Source: an uncultured Actinomycetes bacterium (GTDB lineage Bacteria; Actinomycetota; Thermoleophilia; Gaiellales; Gaiellaceae). From it: a stretch of DNA of 64,000 bases. The stretch covers positions 78,290 through 142,289 of the forward strand of contig CAVSAK010000009.1 of NCBI GenBank assembly GCA_963725965.1, written 5' to 3'. The translations under genes were made by a program, and so were the position numbers. The number at the start of each line of letters is the position of its first letter. Positions within the stretch are counted from its first letter, which is position 1. The notes below the pieces were generated by a model, which was given only the letters and a program-made list of their open reading frames with translations, did no database searches and had not been told where the DNA came from. Shown here piece by piece: positions 4,356-51,512 of this stretch.

Positions 4356-4663
4356 ACGACTGCCTCTTCTGCAAGCTCTACCACGAGGGCGACCTTGTCG
4401 CAGCGACGGACGGTTTCGTCGCGATCCGCGACATCAACCCGCAGGCGCCGGTGCATCTGCTCGTGATCCCCGAGCGCCATGTCAACTCGTTCCGCGAGAT
4501 CGGCGAGTTCACGGCCGACGAGGACAAGCGGATGCTCGAGTTCGTGGCCGAGGTCGCTGCACGCGGGGGGTTGACGGATTACCGTGTCGAGGTCAACGTG
4601 GGCCCAAGCGCGGGCCAGACGATTTTCCATCTGCACTGGCACATCAAAGGCGGCTGGGCTTGA
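4352..4663 (+). CDS. HIT (histidine triad) family protein
   Basis: GTG 4352 lies in a GTGA overlap with the mtaB stop. The sequence reads CLFCKL...NPQAPVHLLVIPERH...IFHLHWHIKGG (HxHxHxx motif). Confidence 0.85.
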   Translation: MNDCLFCKLYHEGDLVAATDGFVAIRDINPQAPVHLLVIPERHVNSFREIGEFTADEDKRMLEFVAEVAARGGLTDYRVEVNVGPSAGQTIFHLHWHIKGGWA

Positions 4664-4730
4664 GCCGTAGGCTCGACGGAGTCGAACAAGGAGTGGAGGC
4701 GGCGGCTTTGCCGGCGCCGGAGCGGAAATG
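4661..4730 (+). repeat. 70-nt intergenic element, copy A (TGA of the HIT gene to ATG of the yqeY-like gene)
   Basis: Near-identical to 50780-50849 (+) and to the reverse complement of 25573-25642. Contains a GC hairpin at 4698-4718 and GGAG five nt before the ATG. Confidence 0.85.
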
Positions 4731-5171
4731 AGCCTGATCGAGGACATCGACGACGAACTGAAGGATGCGATGCGGGCGCGCGACGCGGAGCGTCGCGACA
4801 CGCTGCGACTGATCCTCAACGCGCTCAAGAACTCGGAGAAGGAGCTGCAGCGTCCCCTCAGCGAGGACGAGGAGCTGCAGGTGCTGCAACGCGAGCGGAA
4901 GCAGCGGGTCGAGGCGGCCGAGGCCTTCCGCACCGGCGGGCGCGAAGAGCAGGCTGCGGCCGAGGAGCGCGAGCTCGACGTGCTCGAGGAGTTCATGCCC
5001 GAGCCGCTCTCCGAGGACGAGGTGGAGGAGATCGTCGATGATGTCATCGCCGAGGTGGGGGCGACGAGCATGGCTGACCTCGGCCGGGTGATGGCCGACG
5101 TGATGCCGCAGATCGCCGGCCGCGCGGACGGCTCACAGGTCAGCCAGATCGTCCGCGAAAAGCTCGCCTAG
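4728..5171 (+). CDS. GatB/YqeY domain protein
   Basis: 147 aa. MSLIEDIDDELKDAMRARDAERRDTLRLILNALKNSEKE is a typical YqeY N-terminus. Confidence 0.85.
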   Translation: MSLIEDIDDELKDAMRARDAERRDTLRLILNALKNSEKELQRPLSEDEELQVLQRERKQRVEAAEAFRTGGREEQAAAEERELDVLEEFMPEPLSEDEVEEIVDDVIAEVGATSMADLGRVMADVMPQIAGRADGSQVSQIVREKLA

Positions 5172-23892: not shown

Positions 23893-23935
23893 CGGGCGGA
23901 TCCTCCCGCACCCGCGGCGTCCTGGAGAACGTTCC

Positions 23936-23984
23936 TTGACTTTCCTGATAGGAAAGTCTATCGTCTACTTTCCAAGTAGGAAAG
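23936..23984 (+). promoter_or_regulatory. Promoter with twin palindromic operators
   Basis: TTGACT (23936-23941), a 17-nt spacer, then TATCGT (23959-23964). The inverted repeats are CTTTCCTGATAGGAAAG (23940-23956) and CTTTCCAAGTAGGAAAG (23968-23984), with centres 28 bp apart. Confidence 0.55.
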
Positions 23985-23999
23985 CGAAGGGGGATCGAG

Positions 24000-24482
24000 A
24001 TGAACTATCCAACCGAGGCCGAGGCGCGTCTGGCGCTCGAGTCGGTTCGCAGCGGGCGGCAGCAGGTGATCGACGAGATCGGGATGCCCTGGTGGTACTG
24101 GTGGGGCCTCGCCGCTTGCTGGGTCGTCCTCGGGTTGCTGGCCAACTTCCACGCGCCGTGGTGGGTAATCAGCGTGGCGACGGTCCTCGTCGGCGCGGGG
24201 CACGCGACCGTGTCGCATCGAGTGCTGGCCGGTCGCCAGCGAACCCGCGGCGTGAGGGTCAGCGGCGACGTCGCAGGAGAGCGCGGAATGGCGCTCGTGA
24301 TCGGCTTTCTCCTCGCCCTCGTAGGCGTGACGATCGCCGTAGCCGTCGGCTTGTCGGCCGACGGCGCCGGTCACCCGTCCATCTGGGCGAGCGGCTTCGC
24401 GGCGGTTCTGGTCGTACTCGGCGGCCCGCGCGTGACGAACGCGGTCCGCCACGACGCCATTCGTCGCGCCGTCGTCGAATGA
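24000..24482 (+). CDS. Small membrane protein (4 predicted TM segments)
   Basis: 160-aa ORF with GGGGGA upstream of the ATG. Hydrophobic stretches include WWYWWGLAACWVVLGLL and ALVIGFLLALVGVTIAVAVGL. Translationally coupled to the regulator gene that follows. Confidence 0.6.
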   Translation: MNYPTEAEARLALESVRSGRQQVIDEIGMPWWYWWGLAACWVVLGLLANFHAPWWVISVATVLVGAGHATVSHRVLAGRQRTRGVRVSGDVAGERGMALVIGFLLALVGVTIAVAVGLSADGAGHPSIWASGFAAVLVVLGGPRVTNAVRHDAIRRAVVE

Positions 24483-24790
24483 GCAACGGCGCCAGGTTCG
24501 ACGAGCTGATCCACCCGGCGACGAGGCTGTCTGTCGTGGCGCTCCTCGCCGCGGCCGAGTGGGCCGACTTCGCGTTCATCCGCGATCGGCTCGGACTCTC
24601 GGACTCGGCGCTGTCCAAGCAGCTCGCGACGCTCGAGGAGGCCGGTTACGTCGCGATCGAAAGGCCGGTGAGCGAGCGGCGACGCCGCGTCCGGGCGCGA
24701 CTCACGCCCCTGGGGCGGGAGCGGTTCGCCGCCCACGTGGCCGCGTTGCAGGGCATCATCGCCGTCGGCGACGCAGCGCCCTACGAGTAA
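24479..24790 (+). CDS. Winged-helix transcriptional regulator (ArsR/MarR-like small wHTH)
   Basis: ATGA overlap. The sequence reads LIHPATRLSVVALLAAAEWADFAFIRDRLGLSDSALSKQLATLEEAGYVAIER. Confidence 0.75.
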   Translation: MSNGARFDELIHPATRLSVVALLAAAEWADFAFIRDRLGLSDSALSKQLATLEEAGYVAIERPVSERRRRVRARLTPLGRERFAAHVAALQGIIAVGDAAPYE

Positions 24791-25575
24791 CCGAGCTCGG
24801 CGAGCAGCGGGCCCGCCTCCGCCTCGACGTCGGCGATCTGCTCCGGCGTCAGCTCCCGGTGCCAGCGTCCGATCGAGGAGTCGCGGAAACGGTCGAGCGC
24901 TCGATGCGTCGAGGTCACGTTCGAGCCGAGAAACTCCACGAGCCGGTCCGCCACGCTCGCGAGCCCCTCGTAGCGAATCTCGAGCAGGCGATCGCCGGCG
25001 TCCGCGGCTCGCACCGCCTCGACGTAGCGCCGCCACGCCCACGCGCACCGGCGGGCGTTGCTCACCTCCGAGAACTCGTCGCGGCGCTCGGGCTCGACCC
25101 AGAAGCGAGGCTCGGACCCGTACGGGAGTCGCGCGTCGTCCTGCCCGGCGTGATCCGCGTTCAGCCAGCCGCGTTCGAGGAGTGAGCAGACGACGTCGCG
25201 GCCGTCCCGCAGCACGTGCACCGCGAGCGCCTCGGGATACGCCTCGAGGGCCGCGTCGAGGACGTGCGCCGTCTCGGGAGTCTGCTCCACGCCGCGGAGT
25301 CCCCAGGCCAGACCGAGACGCCGGATGCGCTCGAGGATCCTCCGGAGGTCTTCCGCTGAGGGGTCAAGCGGCAGCGCCGCCTTCCACGGCGTGACCTCAC
25401 CGAAGTCGACGAAGCCCGGCAGGCCGCCGATCGCGCGGCCGACGAACGTCGTCCCCGAGCGCGGGCAGCCGACGACGAAGACGAGGCGCTCCTCGCGTCC
25501 GAGCCTCGGCCGCTGCACCAGTGCGCGCTCCGCCACCCGAGCGCCTGCGGTGGCGTAGTCGAGCAACGCGCTCAC
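24781..25575 (-). CDS. Sulfotransferase family protein
   Basis: 5'-PSB-like P-loop FVVGCPRSGTTFVGR, and later VLRDGRDVVCS. GTG 25575 is chosen as the start because it occupies the start-codon position of the 70-nt element; the track start TTG 25596 lies inside the repeat. Confidence 0.75.
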   Translation of the reverse strand: MSALLDYATAGARVAERALVQRPRLGREERLVFVVGCPRSGTTFVGRAIGGLPGFVDFGEVTPWKAALPLDPSAEDLRRILERIRRLGLAWGLRGVEQTPETAHVLDAALEAYPEALAVHVLRDGRDVVCSLLERGWLNADHAGQDDARLPYGSEPRFWVEPERRDEFSEVSNARRCAWAWRRYVEAVRAADAGDRLLEIRYEGLASVADRLVEFLGSNVTSTHRALDRFRDSSIGRWHRELTPEQIADVEAEAGPLLAELGYS

Positions 25576-25642
25576 TTCCCGCTCCGGCGCCGGCAAGGCC
25601 GCCGCCTCCGCTTCTGGGTGAGCTCCGTCGAGCCTACGCTCA
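25573..25642 (-). repeat. 70-nt intergenic element, copy C (TGA of the hypothetical gene to GTG of the sulfotransferase gene)
   Basis: Reverse complement: TGAGCGTAGGCTCGACGGAGCTCACCCAGAAGCGGAGGCGGCGGCCTTGCCGGCGCCGGAGCGGGAAGTG. It aligns along its full length with copies A and B. Confidence 0.85.
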
Positions 25643-26068
25643 CGACATCTCCGGCAGCGAGTCCGGCACGAGCCCGAGCCCCTGCCTGAGCGTCTCGATC
25701 AGATGCTGTGCGTCGGCGAGCAGTGATGCGAGCACCTCGATCTCGTCGCGCGGCACCTCGAGCGTCACTCGCACGGGCGAGCGGGCCGTGGAGGAGAGCG
25801 CGATCGTCTCGATCTCGTCGGTCGCGAGCGCGGTCACGTCGAGATATTCGTCCCTCGCGAGGCGCTGCCCGGGCACGAAGCGCTCCGCCGCCGCCCCGAG
25901 GCGCTCCGCCAGGACTCCGGCGTAGTGGCCGGGCACGCGGATCGTCGCCTCGCCGCTGAGCAGTCCGATGGTCGCCGACCAGCTCCCGTAGGCGGCTCCG
26001 TCGCCGTCGTGGCGCACGACGTGCACCGCGAGGGTGGCCGTGACGCCGATCGGATAGCGCTCCTCCAT
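25640..26068 (-). CDS. Hypothetical protein
   Basis: 142-aa ORF with ordinary composition and no motif recognised. Its TGA stop is the first triplet of repeat copy C. Confidence 0.5.
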   Translation of the reverse strand: MEERYPIGVTATLAVHVVRHDGDGAAYGSWSATIGLLSGEATIRVPGHYAGVLAERLGAAAERFVPGQRLARDEYLDVTALATDEIETIALSSTARSPVRVTLEVPRDEIEVLASLLADAQHLIETLRQGLGLVPDSLPEMS

Positions 26069-26121: not shown

Positions 26122-27603
26122 ATGGCGAACGAGACCATCAACGATCCGCGGCTCGAGGAAGGTGTCTGGACGACCGATCCCGAGAGCGGCGAGCTCGTCC
26201 CCGACTACGAGTCCACCTTCCCCACGATCGAGGAGGGGCAGGTCGTGAACGGCACCGTCGTCCGCGTCGACAAGGACGAGGTTCTGGTCGACATCGGCTA
26301 CAAGTCGGAGGGCGTCATCCCGGTCTCGGAGCTTTCGATCCGCCGCTCGATCAACCCTGTGGACGAGGTGTCGATCGGAGACGACATCGCGGCGCTCGTC
26401 CTGACGAAGGAGGACGCCGAGGGCCGGCTGATCCTCTCCAAGAAGCGGGCGCGCTTCGAGATCGCGTGGAAGGCGATCGAGACTGCGCACGAGAAGGGCG
26501 AGCCCGTCACGGGCCGCGTGATCGAGGTCGTCAAGGGCGGCCTCATCCTCGACCTCGGCGTGCGGGGTTTCCTGCCCGCGTCGCTCGTCGACATCCGCCG
26601 GGTGCAGGACCTCGATGAGTTCCTCGGCCAGGAGCTCGAGTCCAAGGTCATCGAGCTCAACCGCTCGCGCAACAACGTCGTCCTCTCGCGCCGCGCCGTG
26701 CTCGAAGAAGAGCGCAAGGAGCAGCGGCAGAAGATCCTCGACCGCCTCAACCCCGGCGACGTCGTGGAAGGGACGATCTCGAACATCGTCGACTTCGGCG
26801 CCTTCGTCGACCTCGACGGGATGGACGGCCTCATCCACATCTCGGAGCTTTCGTGGAGCCACGTCAACCACCCGTCGGAGGTCCTGGAGATCGGCCAGAC
26901 GGTCAAGGTGCAGGTTCTGGACATCGACCGCGAGCGCCAGCGGATCTCGCTCGGCCTCAAGCAGACGCAGACCGATCCGTGGCAGCAGGTGCTCGAGAGC
27001 TACCAGGAGGGCGACGTCGTGCAGGGCACGGTGACGAAGGTCGTCACCTTCGGCGCCTTCGTCGAGATCCTGCCCGGCGTCGAGGGGCTCGTCCACATCT
27101 CCGAGCTCGCGCAGCACCACGTCGAGAACCCACGCGAGATCGTCTCGCAGGGCGACAAGGTGAACGTCCGCATCCTCGAGGTCGACGCCGACCGGCGGCG
27201 CCTCTCGCTCTCGCTCAAGCGGGTCGAGGAGGGGATGCCGGTGCAACCGATGCCCGGCGAGGAAGCTGCCCCGCCCGCGCTCGGGCTGTCCGACGAGGTC
27301 TTCGCCGACGAGGTTCCCGCCGCCGAGGCGCTCGAGGCGCCGGCGGAGGAAGAGCCTGCCGCCGAGGGCGAGCCCGAGGTCGTAGCCGAGGTCGTCGAGG
27401 AGGAGCCTGCCGCGGAGGTCGAGGCCGAGGTCGTCGAGGCGGAGGAGCCTGCGGCCGCGGAACTCGAGCCGGTTGCCGAAGAGGAACCCGTCGTCGAGGT
27501 CGAGGCCGAGGCGGAGCCTGTCGCAGAGGCGGAGCCTGCCGTCGAGGCAGAGCCGGAAGCCGAGGCCGACGCCGACGCCTCCGACGAGGCCCCGGCCGAA
27601 TAG
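26122..27603 (+). CDS. rpsA: 30S ribosomal protein S1 with a long acidic C-terminal tail
   Basis: Four clear S1 repeats (GQVVNGTVVRV..., VTGRVIEVVKGG..., VVEGTISNIVDFGAFVDL..., VVQGTVTKVVTFGAFVEI...) followed by an E/A/P/V-rich tail. An in-frame TTG at 26110 is an alternative start. Confidence 0.95.
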   Translation: MANETINDPRLEEGVWTTDPESGELVPDYESTFPTIEEGQVVNGTVVRVDKDEVLVDIGYKSEGVIPVSELSIRRSINPVDEVSIGDDIAALVLTKEDAEGRLILSKKRARFEIAWKAIETAHEKGEPVTGRVIEVVKGGLILDLGVRGFLPASLVDIRRVQDLDEFLGQELESKVIELNRSRNNVVLSRRAVLEEERKEQRQKILDRLNPGDVVEGTISNIVDFGAFVDLDGMDGLIHISELSWSHVNHPSEVLEIGQTVKVQVLDIDRERQRISLGLKQTQTDPWQQVLESYQEGDVVQGTVTKVVTFGAFVEILPGVEGLVHISELAQHHVENPREIVSQGDKVNVRILEVDADRRRLSLSLKRVEEGMPVQPMPGEEAAPPALGLSDEVFADEVPAAEALEAPAEEEPAAEGEPEVVAEVVEEEPAAEVEAEVVEAEEPAAAELEPVAEEEPVVEVEAEAEPVAEAEPAVEAEPEAEADADASDEAPAE

Positions 27604-31867: not shown

Positions 31868-34318
31868 CTACTTGCCGACCTTCAGCGCGACCTTCGAGCC
31901 CTTCGTCAGGTGCTTGCCGGGCTTGGGGCTCTGGGAGATCACGTGACCCTTGTTCTTCTTCTTCGACTTGACCTTCGTGATCTTGCCGACACCGCAGTGA
32001 TGGCCCTTGATCGCCCGCTTGGCCGCGGCGAGCGTCTTGGCCTTCACCTTCGGCACGATGCACTTCGTAACGAGCGGCGGCGGGGGCGAGAAGAAGAAGC
32101 TGGCGGTGACCGTGGTGTCGGTGTTCAGCGTGATGACGCAGGTGCCGGTACCGGAGCAGCCGCCGCCCGACCAGCCCAAGAAGCCGGTGCCGGTTGCAGT
32201 CGCTGTGAGCGTGACCTGCGTCCCGGCGCTGAACGCGTGGGAGCAGGTCGACCCGCAATCGATCCCGGCCGGACTGCTCGTGACGCTGCCCCTCGGGCCA
32301 AGTAGTGAGACCGACAAAGTTCGAGTCAGCCCGGGCGTACCGAAGATCGCGTTGACGGTTGTGTCGGCGCTCAGCGTCACCTTGCACGTGCCGGTGCCGG
32401 ATGCCGGTCCGCACCCGCCGCCCGACCATCCCTCGAAGACCGAGCCGGCGGCGGCAGTCGCACTCAGCGTCAGCTGGGTCCCGGAGTCGAACAAGCTCGA
32501 ACAGGTAGAGCCACAGTCGATTCCGGCCGGACTACTCGTCACCGTGCCGGTTCCCGGCCCACCCGTCGTCACCGTCAGTGTGTGCTTCGGAGGCTGCGTC
32601 GGCTGATCCCAGATCGCCTGGTCGCCGTCGTCGATCGGCGTGCTCCCTGTCCCGTTCAAGGCGACGATCTCCGCGCAATACCCGGCGCCGGCTGTAAGTC
32701 CAGTGACGTTGACCGAGACGTCGTGGAACGTGCCGTCGACTTCGGCGGACGGTAGCTGGGTGGGGGTGGTGCTGACGGCGGGTGAGCCCGAGGCGCCGTT
32801 GCTGGTACACCACTCCGAGCTGTCGAAGTCGTACTCGACCACGTAGCTCGTGCTCTGGCCGGCAGCGTTGACGTCGCCGTCGATCGTGGCTGTTGTGAGC
32901 CCGGTGGGGTTGGCGTCGAACGTGTCCACAAACGGTGCGCCCTGGGTCCAGGGGACCTGGCCTCCCTGGGCGTCCCCGTTGGCGTCGGTCGCGACCAGTT
33001 GGGCGCAGTAGGCGATGCCTTCGGTCAGCCCGGTCAGGTCGACGGAGACGAAGTCGTCGTCGGGGATCGGGTCGGTGCCCGCGATCGTCTGCGGCGAGCC
33101 GGACGTGCCGCCGCTCGTGCACCAGTCGGAGGTCGCGAGGTCGTACTCCGCGGCATATGTCGTGGCCTCGCCGTGAGGATCGATCAGGCCCTCCACGGTC
33201 GCCGTGGTCGCTCCGGTCGAGTAGGTGTCGAATGTCAGAACGTCGGGCGTTTCCCCCTGTGTCCACGACAGTTGGGCGCCGTCGACTTCACCGTTGACGT
33301 TGGTCGCGATGAGCCGGGCGCAATAGTCGGAGGCTGCAGTAAGCCCAGTCAGGTCGACGGAGACGCCGTGGAAAACCTCGTCCGTAAATCCGAGATCTGT
33401 CGCGTCGGTCGCTTTCCCCGGCGAGCCGGAAGTGCCGCCGCTCGTGCACCACTCGGAGCTGGACAGGTCGTATTGCACGGCGTAGCTCGTCGTCTCGCCG
33501 TTCGGATTGACGACGCCGGTGACCGTCGCCGTCGAGCCTCCCGTCGGCGAGGCGGCCCCGGTCGTCGCCCCCGGCTTGTCCACGGTGAACCTCACGAAGG
33601 TGGTCCCGAACGCTTCCCCGCCGGCGCTGAAGGCTGCTGCTCGCGCGCAGTACCCGGCTCCGGTCTGCAGTTCGAACAGCTTGACCGAGACGTCGTGGAC
33701 GGTGTTGTCGGTGAAGCCGAGATCAGCGTTGTCTGAGATGTGCGGCGTCGGTCCCGATTCGCCGTCGCTTGTGCACCAGGTTGAGCTGGCGAGGCCGTAC
33801 GCAACGTCGTAGACCGTGTCGTTCCCCTCTGGATTGATCGCGACGTCTACCGTCGCCGACGCCGCCGAGGTTGCGAACCCGTCGAGCGTGTCGACCTCGG
33901 GCGGGTCCTGCTGCCACGTCACCTGCGGCCCGTCGCCTTCTCCGTCGCCGTTGGTCGCAATGAATCGCCCGCAGTACGTGGTGAACCGGGTCAGTCCGGT
34001 CAGGTTCACCCCGACCTCGATGGCAGAGTTGGACCCGAGTGGGGTGGGGCTCGTCGCGTTGTCCGGCGAACCCGACGTGCCACCGCTCGTGCACCACGTG
34101 GAGCTCTGGACGTCCCACTCGACCGCGTAGCTCGTCGTCGCGTCCAATTGGGGGTCGATGTCACCGGCGAATGTTGCCGTCGTGAACCCGGTTGCTTGGA
34201 CAGAAGTCTTCGTGACGACAGGTGCCGCAGCCGAGGCTGCGGCCGGCAGGCAAAGCGTCACGGCGATCCCGAGAAGGCCGACCAGGAAGAGTGGGGCGCG
34301 GCGCGGACGCATGGTCAT
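31868..34318 (-). CDS. Large secreted repeat protein: signal peptide, 5 Cys-bearing FN3-like repeats, 2 InlB-B-repeat-like modules, C-terminal PASTA-like domain
   Basis: Signal peptide MTMRPRRAPLFLVGLLGIAVTLCLPAAASAAA. Five ~105-aa repeats share Y.V.YD..SS.WCTS.G.SG...VSV.LTGLT...YCA...A.N. Two modules contain VTSSPAGIDCGSTCS...GWSGGGC..TGTC. The tail is CIVPKVKAKTLAAAKRAIKGHHCGVGKITKV...GHVISQSPKPGKHLTKGSKVALKVGK. Start alternatives are 34312 and 34369. Confidence 0.8.
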   Translation of the reverse strand: MTMRPRRAPLFLVGLLGIAVTLCLPAAASAAAPVVTKTSVQATGFTTATFAGDIDPQLDATTSYAVEWDVQSSTWCTSGGTSGSPDNATSPTPLGSNSAIEVGVNLTGLTRFTTYCGRFIATNGDGEGDGPQVTWQQDPPEVDTLDGFATSAASATVDVAINPEGNDTVYDVAYGLASSTWCTSDGESGPTPHISDNADLGFTDNTVHDVSVKLFELQTGAGYCARAAAFSAGGEAFGTTFVRFTVDKPGATTGAASPTGGSTATVTGVVNPNGETTSYAVQYDLSSSEWCTSGGTSGSPGKATDATDLGFTDEVFHGVSVDLTGLTAASDYCARLIATNVNGEVDGAQLSWTQGETPDVLTFDTYSTGATTATVEGLIDPHGEATTYAAEYDLATSDWCTSGGTSGSPQTIAGTDPIPDDDFVSVDLTGLTEGIAYCAQLVATDANGDAQGGQVPWTQGAPFVDTFDANPTGLTTATIDGDVNAAGQSTSYVVEYDFDSSEWCTSNGASGSPAVSTTPTQLPSAEVDGTFHDVSVNVTGLTAGAGYCAEIVALNGTGSTPIDDGDQAIWDQPTQPPKHTLTVTTGGPGTGTVTSSPAGIDCGSTCSSLFDSGTQLTLSATAAAGSVFEGWSGGGCGPASGTGTCKVTLSADTTVNAIFGTPGLTRTLSVSLLGPRGSVTSSPAGIDCGSTCSHAFSAGTQVTLTATATGTGFLGWSGGGCSGTGTCVITLNTDTTVTASFFFSPPPPLVTKCIVPKVKAKTLAAAKRAIKGHHCGVGKITKVKSKKKNKGHVISQSPKPGKHLTKGSKVALKVGK

Positions 34319-50768: not shown

Positions 50769-50779
50769 ACTTGGAGGCG

Positions 50780-50849
50780 TGAGCGTAGGCTTGACGGAGC
50801 TCAGCAAGGAGTGGAGGCGTCGGCTTTGCCGGCGCCGGAGCGGGAAATG
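50780..50849 (+). repeat. 70-nt intergenic element, copy B (ends at the ATG of the udg gene)
   Basis: TGAGCGTAGGCTTGACGGAGCTCAGCAAGGAGTGGAGGCGTCGGCTTTGCCGGCGCCGGAGCGGGAAATG. Here the initial TGA lies 11 nt after the greA TAG stop. Confidence 0.85.
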
Positions 50850-51512
50850 AGTGCGGTGCCGGTCGCTGTGGAGACGCTCGAGGAGTACGGGGCGGCGACC
50901 GCGAGCTGCACGCGATGCCGTCTCGCGCAAGGACGGACGCAGGTCGTCTTCGGAGCCGGGAACCCGCGCGCCGACCTGATGTTCGTCGGCGAGGCGCCCG
51001 GCTTCCACGAGGACAAGCAGGGCGTCCCGTTCGTCGGTCAGGCGGGGAAGCTGCTGGAGGGGCTGCTCGCAGGTGTCGATCTCCGCCGTGAGGACGTCTA
51101 CATCGCGAACGTGCTGAAGTGCCGGCCGCCGGGGAATCGCGACCCGCAGCCAGACGAGATCGAGGCGTGCGAGCCGCACCTCTTCCGCCAGATCGAGCTG
51201 ATCGAGCCGAAGGTGATCGCGACGCTCGGCAACTTTGCGACCAAGCTCCTCTCGGGCCGCCCACTCGGCATCACCCGCGTGCACGGCCAGGAGCAGGAGC
51301 TGACGATCGCCGGCCGGAGCGTCCTCCTCTATCCGCTTTACCACCCGGCCGCCGCGCTCTATACGCCGGCGATGCTCAAGGTGCTCGAAGCCGACTTCGC
51401 CCGCCTGCCCGGGCTGCTCGGTGCCGCCGAGCCCGCGCCGCTCGCAGCTCTTCCAGAGCCTGAGCCGGAGCCTGCGGTCGAGGCTCCCGCGGAACAGCTC
51501 GGACTCTTCTAG
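50847..51512 (+). CDS. udg: Uracil-DNA glycosylase, family 4
   Basis: [38 protein letters not shown] and YHPAAAL. ATG 50847 is preferred over GTG 50811, which lies inside the repeat. Confidence 0.88.

Follow-up and report, generated by a model that had tools for sequence, protein, structure and literature searches.

The window analysed here is a stretch of 64,000 nucleotides from the genome of an uncultured member of the Gaiellaceae (G000; 2.69 Mb, 15 contigs, 69% GC). On its minus strand a gene encoding 142 amino acids is followed by a sulfotransferase gene, and a short repeat (copy C) lies at the junction of the two; two further copies, A and B, are found on the plus strand (Table 1). As the preliminary description of this DNA had stated, the 70 nt of copy C quoted there are the exact reverse complement of window positions 25573-25642, with the stop of the 142-aa ORF (TGA 25640-25642) at one end and, at the other, GTG 25573-25575, which sits 6 nt past a GGAG. 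Copies A and B are 86-88% identical to copy C over 63-82 nt (repeat finder: 82 nt at 88% and 63 nt at 86%), and conserved cores of 23 nt and 27 nt have 3 and 2 matches in the window, respectively, vs 0 in 100 dinucleotide-preserving shuffles. In the three-way alignment the centre of copy C reads CAGAAGCGG, as claimed, where the family consensus is CAAGGAGCGG.

Table 1. Coordinates of the three copies, the parts of copy C, its neighbouring genes (positions in the window) and two transposase-like genes elsewhere in G000.
Feature	Position	Strand	Remarks
Copy A	4660-4734	+	between HIT-like gene and yqeY; TGAGCC on each side
Sulfotransferase gene	24781..25575	-	264 aa from GTG 25575; PF13469 1.5e-11, PF00685 4.4e-7
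3' junction copy GTGAGC	25570..25575	-	native sulfotransferase start GTG 25573-25575 and mini-ORF stop TGA 25572-25574
Mini-ORF (VSVGSTELTQKRRRRPCRRRSGK*)	25572..25643	-	23 codons plus stop; 4-nt overlap with upstream stop and with downstream start
Shine-Dalgarno GGAG and spacer CGGGAA	25576..25585	-	GGAG at 25582-25585, 6-nt spacer; conserved across the family
Stem 2, GGCGGCGGC-CTT-GCCGGCGCC	25586..25606	-	GC hairpin; one G.G mismatch in the subfamily of copy C
Purine-rich linker CCAGAAGCGGA	25607..25617	-	family consensus CAAGGAGCGGA
Stem 1, 3' arm GCTCAC	25618..25623	-	complementary to the 5' arm
Family-invariant loop GTAGGCTCGACGGA	25624..25637	-	GTAG, then small GCTC-GACG-GAGC palindrome; nearly invariant in 146 copies
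5' junction copy GTGAGC	25638..25643	-	TGA stop (25640-25642) of 142-aa gene and overlapping GTG that opens the mini-ORF
Stem 1, 5' arm (same GTGAGC)	25638..25643	-	hexamer single in empty sites
142-aa gene	25640..26068	-	no Pfam match; divergent neighbour of rpsA
Copy B	50779-50852	+	between greA and udg; flanks GTGAGC and ATGAGT
RAYT-like gene 1	G000 C4:495,913-496,509 (L250 1249-1848)	-	outside the window
RAYT-like gene 2	G000 C12:159,679-160,212 (L251 1237-1824)	-	outside the window

The two neighbours of copy C had been taken for an acquired block, and this part of the preliminary description did not survive comparison: the gene pair was matched in 59 of 60 congeners and the 142-aa gene adjoins rpsA in 19/19 relatives inspected, so that both genes are core to the genus. 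The rpsA side is conserved in all 19 relatives, and only the part of the polA-rpsA interval at 23900-24780, 3' of the sulfotransferase gene and without a counterpart in the 1.5-kb flanks of these relatives, looks variable. Two other repeats in the window belong to coding sequence. Short imperfect GAG/GCC-rich repeats with periods of 12-18 nt in the 3' part of rpsA (27330-27577) encode an acidic low-complexity tail, and the 4-5 tandem DNA repeats of ~315-327 nt (63-77% identity) at 32769-34142 are the repeated domains of a large gene.

A search of G000 with nhmmer and a covariance model (R1) yielded 13 copies. Twenty of 24 sampled congeners carry 1 to 36 copies and the remaining four carry none, giving a range of 0 to 36 per genome, and the element measures 66-72 nt. 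Across 150 genomes of the order, one family had matches in 15 of its 45 sampled genomes (five genera) and the 105 genomes of four other families had none; within the sampled order the element family is restricted to the Gaiellaceae, where it is patchy and variable in copy number. Some copies are arrayed in tandem: G004 holds a perfect dimer with a 68-nt unit, in which ATGAGCG is common to both ends and the joint, and other arrays have 3-6 units. An Rfam scan of the region (E up to 10) gave no match to the element, and a literature search for a described repeat of Gaiella gave nothing relevant among the results listed.

Empty, filled and remnant junctions

Site C was compared among the 60 congeners using a 1-kb query across the junction, which matched in 59, many as two abutting pieces. 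Fourteen relatives (G076, G066, G065, G064, G060, G004, G020, G023, G018, G054, G058, G012, G009 and G049) have the gene pair at the orthologous junction and lack the element. Their empty site contains …CTGTGAGCGCG… with the junction …CT GTGAGCG CGCTGCTCGACTAC…, in which the upstream stop and the sulfotransferase start overlap as GTGA. In G000, G059 and G062 the site is filled, with 68 nt between GTGAGC and (A/G)TGAGC. Remnants are present in G002 (20 nt, GTGAGCCGCCGGAGCGGAAAGTGAGCG) and G073 (14 nt, ATGAGCGGCGGGAAATGA); both lengths are 2 mod 3, each internal deletion has a length divisible by three, and a short xTGA…xTGA frame remains. These junctions show copy C to be inserted DNA bordered by a short direct repeat. 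In one empty genome, G076, the junction orthologous to window 25570-25650 (L035) reads GAGATGACTGTGAGCG, one base longer than in G000, and the upstream frame therefore seems not to stop at GTGA; this may reflect a gene fusion, a compensated frameshift or an assembly error.

The empty sites also settle the start of the sulfotransferase gene, for which GTG 25575 had been predicted. Element-free genomes begin the gene at the same GTG. The longest sulfotransferase ORF starts at TTG 25596, a codon that belongs to the insert and that relatives lack. Because the junction without the element overlaps as GTGA, GTG 25575 is the native start and TTG 25596 was made by the insert, and the overlap leaves no room for an N-terminal extension from TTG 25596, which rules that start out.

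Turnover is not confined to site C. Synthetic empty junctions of the 13 G000 copies were searched in five relatives (G076, G066, G065, G059 and G062), and all 13 align uninterrupted in G076, G066 and G065, so the earlier suggestion of a dispersed, possibly mobile, element is borne out. Among the 13 sites, G059 is filled at site C only. G062 is filled there too and probably has a second filled site, orthologous to C4:146022 (G062 C69:1192-1727), in which ~150 nt separate the two flanks; this length is compatible with two tandem units vs one in G000, which would be array-length variation between species. More distant genomes share other G000 insertions, G009 and G022 that at C3:354861, and G020 and G041 that at C12:45059. 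In a tree of the genes flanking site C, G000 groups with G076, G066 and G065, all of them empty (support 99/98 and 100/93); the other filled genomes, G059 and G062, and the two with remnants, G002 and G073, are placed elsewhere. Two histories would explain this: repeated insertion at the same junctions, or frequent and precise loss of the element between its direct repeats. Under both, gain and loss are ongoing.

The three window copies share similar gene-junction contexts as well as sequence, as would be expected if they were immobile leftovers of a segmental duplication, or of gene conversion, extending into the flanks. This is, however, extremely improbable: the likeness of copies A, B and C ends at the element boundaries, which argues against duplication of a segment, the alternative that the preliminary description had set against its own reading; the flanks are unrelated genes; and orthologous junctions in relatives lack exactly the 68 nt, an arrangement by which the empty sites refute that origin.

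Landing sites were examined for the 125 copies whose flanks were long enough. Element and downstream gene share their orientation in 103 of 114 called cases, and both neighbours are co-oriented in 72 of the 125. Where the upstream gene is co-oriented (n=89), its stop lies no more than 12 nt before the core in 66 cases and is the element's own TGA of xTGAGC in 47 of these; its frame reads through the element in 16. Empty sites were also found for copies A and B and three other G000 copies, and the native state there is a start codon, usually in an xTGA overlap. G000 has ~445 native xTGA overlaps, of which 30% continue with GC, and type-1 insertions (see below) with a 3' xTGA continue with GC in 23 of 42 cases; on these counts, the sequences suggest a mild preference for TGAGC targets.

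Direct repeats at the junctions vary in length from 0 to 7 nt (13 nt in one array). Copy B reads G-TGAG-C…A-TGAG-T vs the native GTGAGT, so that the outer bases are native and the inner ones come from the element, and the same pattern is seen in G059 and G062 at site C. These junctions fit a duplication or a crossover inside the TGA(G) core; other copies do not. Terminal inverted repeats are absent, and the element ends are not complementary.

Hairpins and reading frames

The anatomy of the family was derived from 146 non-identical copies and a model-based alignment of 108 copies. From 5' to 3' the parts are a 5' arm (xTGAGC in the main type), the 14-nt loop, a 3' arm (GCTCA), the purine-rich linker, a GC hairpin (GGCGCCGGC-loop-GCCGGCGCC), GGAGCGGGAA(A), and the downstream start codon. 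The 6-bp GTGAGC/GCTCAC stem described earlier for copy C is present and covaries in the family: 97% of cells in the five core pairs of stem 1 are paired, double changes number 32-41 in each of three pairs, a sixth pair alternates between GC and AU, and at least 17 different arm pairs retain 5-bp complementarity. In stem 2, 93.7% of cells are paired, five pairs have double changes, and there are 56 G.U vs 4 A.C cells, many of these cells stemming from few ancestral changes; the excess of G.U over A.C indicates that the sense strand folds. The two hairpins covary. An RNAalifold consensus of 13 copies contained the invariant inner hairpin only and was replaced by the covarying outer stem, and a switch, with the middle arm changing partners between the 5' arm and the start codon, was rejected as a general feature (65% of cells paired with the start codon). 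The sense-strand hairpins would either serve a translational relay in the mRNA or be recognised by a mobilising enzyme.

Covariation of this kind, together with the invariant 14-nt loop, the folding of the sense strand and a position nearly always sense and directly 5' of a start codon with a Shine-Dalgarno sequence, could also mark a cis-regulatory structured leader RNA (a riboswitch or protein-binding element) that is conserved or recruited and not selfishly spread. We regard this as very unlikely. The genes downstream of G000 copies (sulfotransferase, ABC-2 permease, pyrophosphatase, APS kinase, TPP enzyme, TGT, YqeY, UDG and cupin) are unrelated, which also led us to discard the idea of a regulon; the element is present or absent at orthologous sites, with all 13 G000 sites empty in three relatives; arrays reach 5-6 units and some insertions lie in frame inside ORFs; and neither the poorly paired switch nor the Rfam scan lends support to a leader. 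The unrelated genes, the polymorphism and the arrays thus rule out a specific riboswitch or regulon operator.

Two types differ in how they are translated. Type 1 (68 nt, 5' xTGAGC) contains a frame that runs from the duplicated start codon to an xTGA overlapping the next start. This xTG(A) to xTGA overlap is found in 55 of 73 type-1 copies, 50 of them with a frame of exactly 69 nt, and the other 18 have no perfect overlap; shared frames are not independent evidence, because copies derive from common ancestors. In subfamilies with an extra G in CCGGGAGC the tail is one base shorter and the overlap is kept. In copy A one end carries a +1 and the other a -1 change, and these likewise keep the overlap and alter the peptide. 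The overlap being kept while the peptide changes, the constraint falls on length and frame, not on the peptide.

Type 2 (66 nt; arms GCGGC/GCCGC or CCGGC/GCCGG) has no 5' TGA and is translated in frame with the host gene. At C4:647,211 the native site is CACAC|ATGAGCGG. The gene preceding that for APS kinase (cysH-like, by position alone) no longer stops at its native ATGA; its frame continues through the 66-nt copy, gaining 22 residues, as far as the ATGA at which the APS-kinase gene starts. A gene upstream of a coaD-like gene in G017 likewise runs through a type-2 element. At C3:354861 a 66-nt copy lies in frame within a 1231-codon stop-to-stop open frame and adds ~22 residues (TGVGSTEPAGTAGGGSVGAGAGVS). 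Beyond the two genomes that share it, this insertion is absent in five other relatives, and G012 has a different insert at the same spot, which marks a variable linker of the protein.

We consider it highly likely that copy C is a 68-nt, non-autonomous, mobile element specific to the Gaiellaceae, which entered the GTGA overlap and duplicated GTGAGC; a translational relay probably makes the insertion tolerable. Insertion into the 4-nt overlap of the 142-aa and sulfotransferase genes would duplicate the junction, and the upstream copy of it would retain the stop codon of the neighbour together with the original ribosome-binding site and start codon. Ribosomes initiating there would translate the 23-codon frame across the element, terminate at the TGA overlapping the restored start codon, 6 nt past the element's own GGAG, and hand translation to the downstream gene by termination-reinitiation. 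Judged from frame and motif positions, the element's frame and ribosome-binding site probably keep the downstream gene translated.

Candidate mobilising enzymes

The searches linked no transposase or recombinase to the family. G000 encodes two RAYT-like Y1 transposases (NF047646, E 1.9e-17 and 8.7e-14, both below the curated cut-off; Table 1), and these are the only Y1 proteins found in this genome. An IS200/IS605-derived (PATE-like) element would be expected to have a Y1 TnpA or a TnpB as partner and to insert 3' of a fixed short target with no duplication. IS110 and TnpB domains gave no match in G000; the IS91 domain gave none either, a result made uninformative by the control genomes, which were also without a match. 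Both RAYT-like genes have hairpin repeats of their own at their flanks, different from each other and from the element. One of these repeats is GTCTCGGTA(A/T)CTGATACCGAGAC, with ~15 copies genome-wide that are often paired, and the other is CCGGAACCAGGTTCCGG; the two genes and their repeats look like two separate REP/RAYT systems.

The GTAG-plus-palindrome core of the family resembles E. coli REP sequences. The element might accordingly be of REP type, with a RAYT as its mobiliser or else a Y1 enzyme of the IS200/IS605 type that acts on single-stranded hairpins, a proposal that concerns the mobilising mechanism only and is compatible with insertion of a mobile element into gene junctions. Its invariant GTAG followed by a small palindrome, its two subterminal hairpins without terminal inverted repeats, and the two RAYT-like proteins of G000 are what one would look for in such a system. 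Even so, this mechanism appears unlikely, as the RAYT-like genes have their own distinct REPs at their flanks instead of the element, no inverted BIME-like pairs occur and copies follow gene orientation, and copy number does not track the presence of RAYTs: G012 has 30 copies and no RAYT hit, and copy-free genomes and other families have RAYTs. A RAYT was on these grounds rejected as the mobiliser.

Target choice by base pairing was also considered, in which the internal arm is complementary to the entry site and the element is moved in trans by an enzyme that reads a programmable guide. The type-1 internal arm GCTCA is complementary to the TGAGC at stop/start overlaps, and changed arms occur at changed sites (GCACG at the CGTGC start at C12:45059, and CAGTGC in L166). 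Among non-type-1 copies the 5' arm recurs past the tail in 6 of 65 vs 2.2 expected, a weak signal, and at two type-2 sites the arm was clearly brought by the element. Guided targeting seems improbable to us; if the base-pair reading were true, the guide sequences of IS200/IS605 elements and the bridge RNAs of IS110 would be its models.

Relation to known repeats

Some copies recall the Rickettsia palindromic elements (RPE), which insert in frame within protein-coding genes: the copy at C3:354861 lies in frame within a gene and leaves the frame unbroken. Most Gaiellaceae copies, in contrast, lie at gene junctions, and the two have no sequence relationship. Features in common with REP/BIME sequences are GTAG at the base of a small palindrome, short extragenic placement, many copies and the presence of RAYT-like genes in the genome. 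The family differs in that copies are not in inverted pairs and do not flank the RAYT-like genes, in a copy number independent of RAYT, and in having a Shine-Dalgarno sequence, a start codon and an ORF, all absent from REPs. Like classical MITEs the element is small, non-autonomous, insertion-polymorphic and bordered by a short repeat, but it has no terminal inverted repeats, its duplication length is not fixed, and no related full-length IS was found.

The closest parallel is with the mycobacterial interspersed repetitive units (MIRU), whose design (Supply et al., 1997) is summarised in PMC3184786 and PMC12548453. In the first summary MIRUs are repeats of 40-100 bp located in operons; their sites occur empty or filled and show tetranucleotide direct repeats, their internal inverted repeats are GC-rich, and their ORFs overlap the adjacent genes (PMC3184786). 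In the second they are the only mobile repeat cited as inserting at start codons with a coupled mini-ORF that keeps the gene expressed (PMC12548453). The Gaiellaceae family has the same size class and dispersal in operons, GC-rich internal inverted repeats, and positions within co-directional gene pairs (13 copies in G000). It likewise has empty and filled orthologous sites with a short direct repeat (~4 nt in MIRU; here at sites C, A, B and C12:45059), insertion at start codons with an ORF overlapping the neighbour's stop and the next start (-4 spacing), and tandem arrays with variable unit numbers (VNTR-like). The element is a real, mobile, MIRU-like junction repeat that has each of the functional features listed here for MIRU.

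Differences from MIRU lie in the host, which belongs to a different class (Thermoleophilia), in the invariant GTAG-containing 14-nt loop closed by a strongly covarying stem, and in the second, 66-nt type without a 5' TGA, translated as a C-terminal extension or internal insert. Model R1, applied to five Mycobacterium genomes that may or may not carry MIRUs and with no MIRU consensus used, gave a best E of 0.06 and at most 24 bits.

The family is a second one of start-codon mobile repeats with a coupled mini-ORF, with no detected sequence link to mycobacteria and in a deeply separate actinobacterial class, which suggests that this route to tolerable insertion has arisen more than once. Gene callers will misplace start codons at element sites, as with TTG 25596, and strains of uncultured Gaiellaceae could potentially be told apart by the tandem arrays. 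The family comprises hundreds of copies in two length classes, besides many empty sites and remnants that keep the frame, and offers material for testing selection on frame and hairpins, and for testing which enzyme moves such elements.
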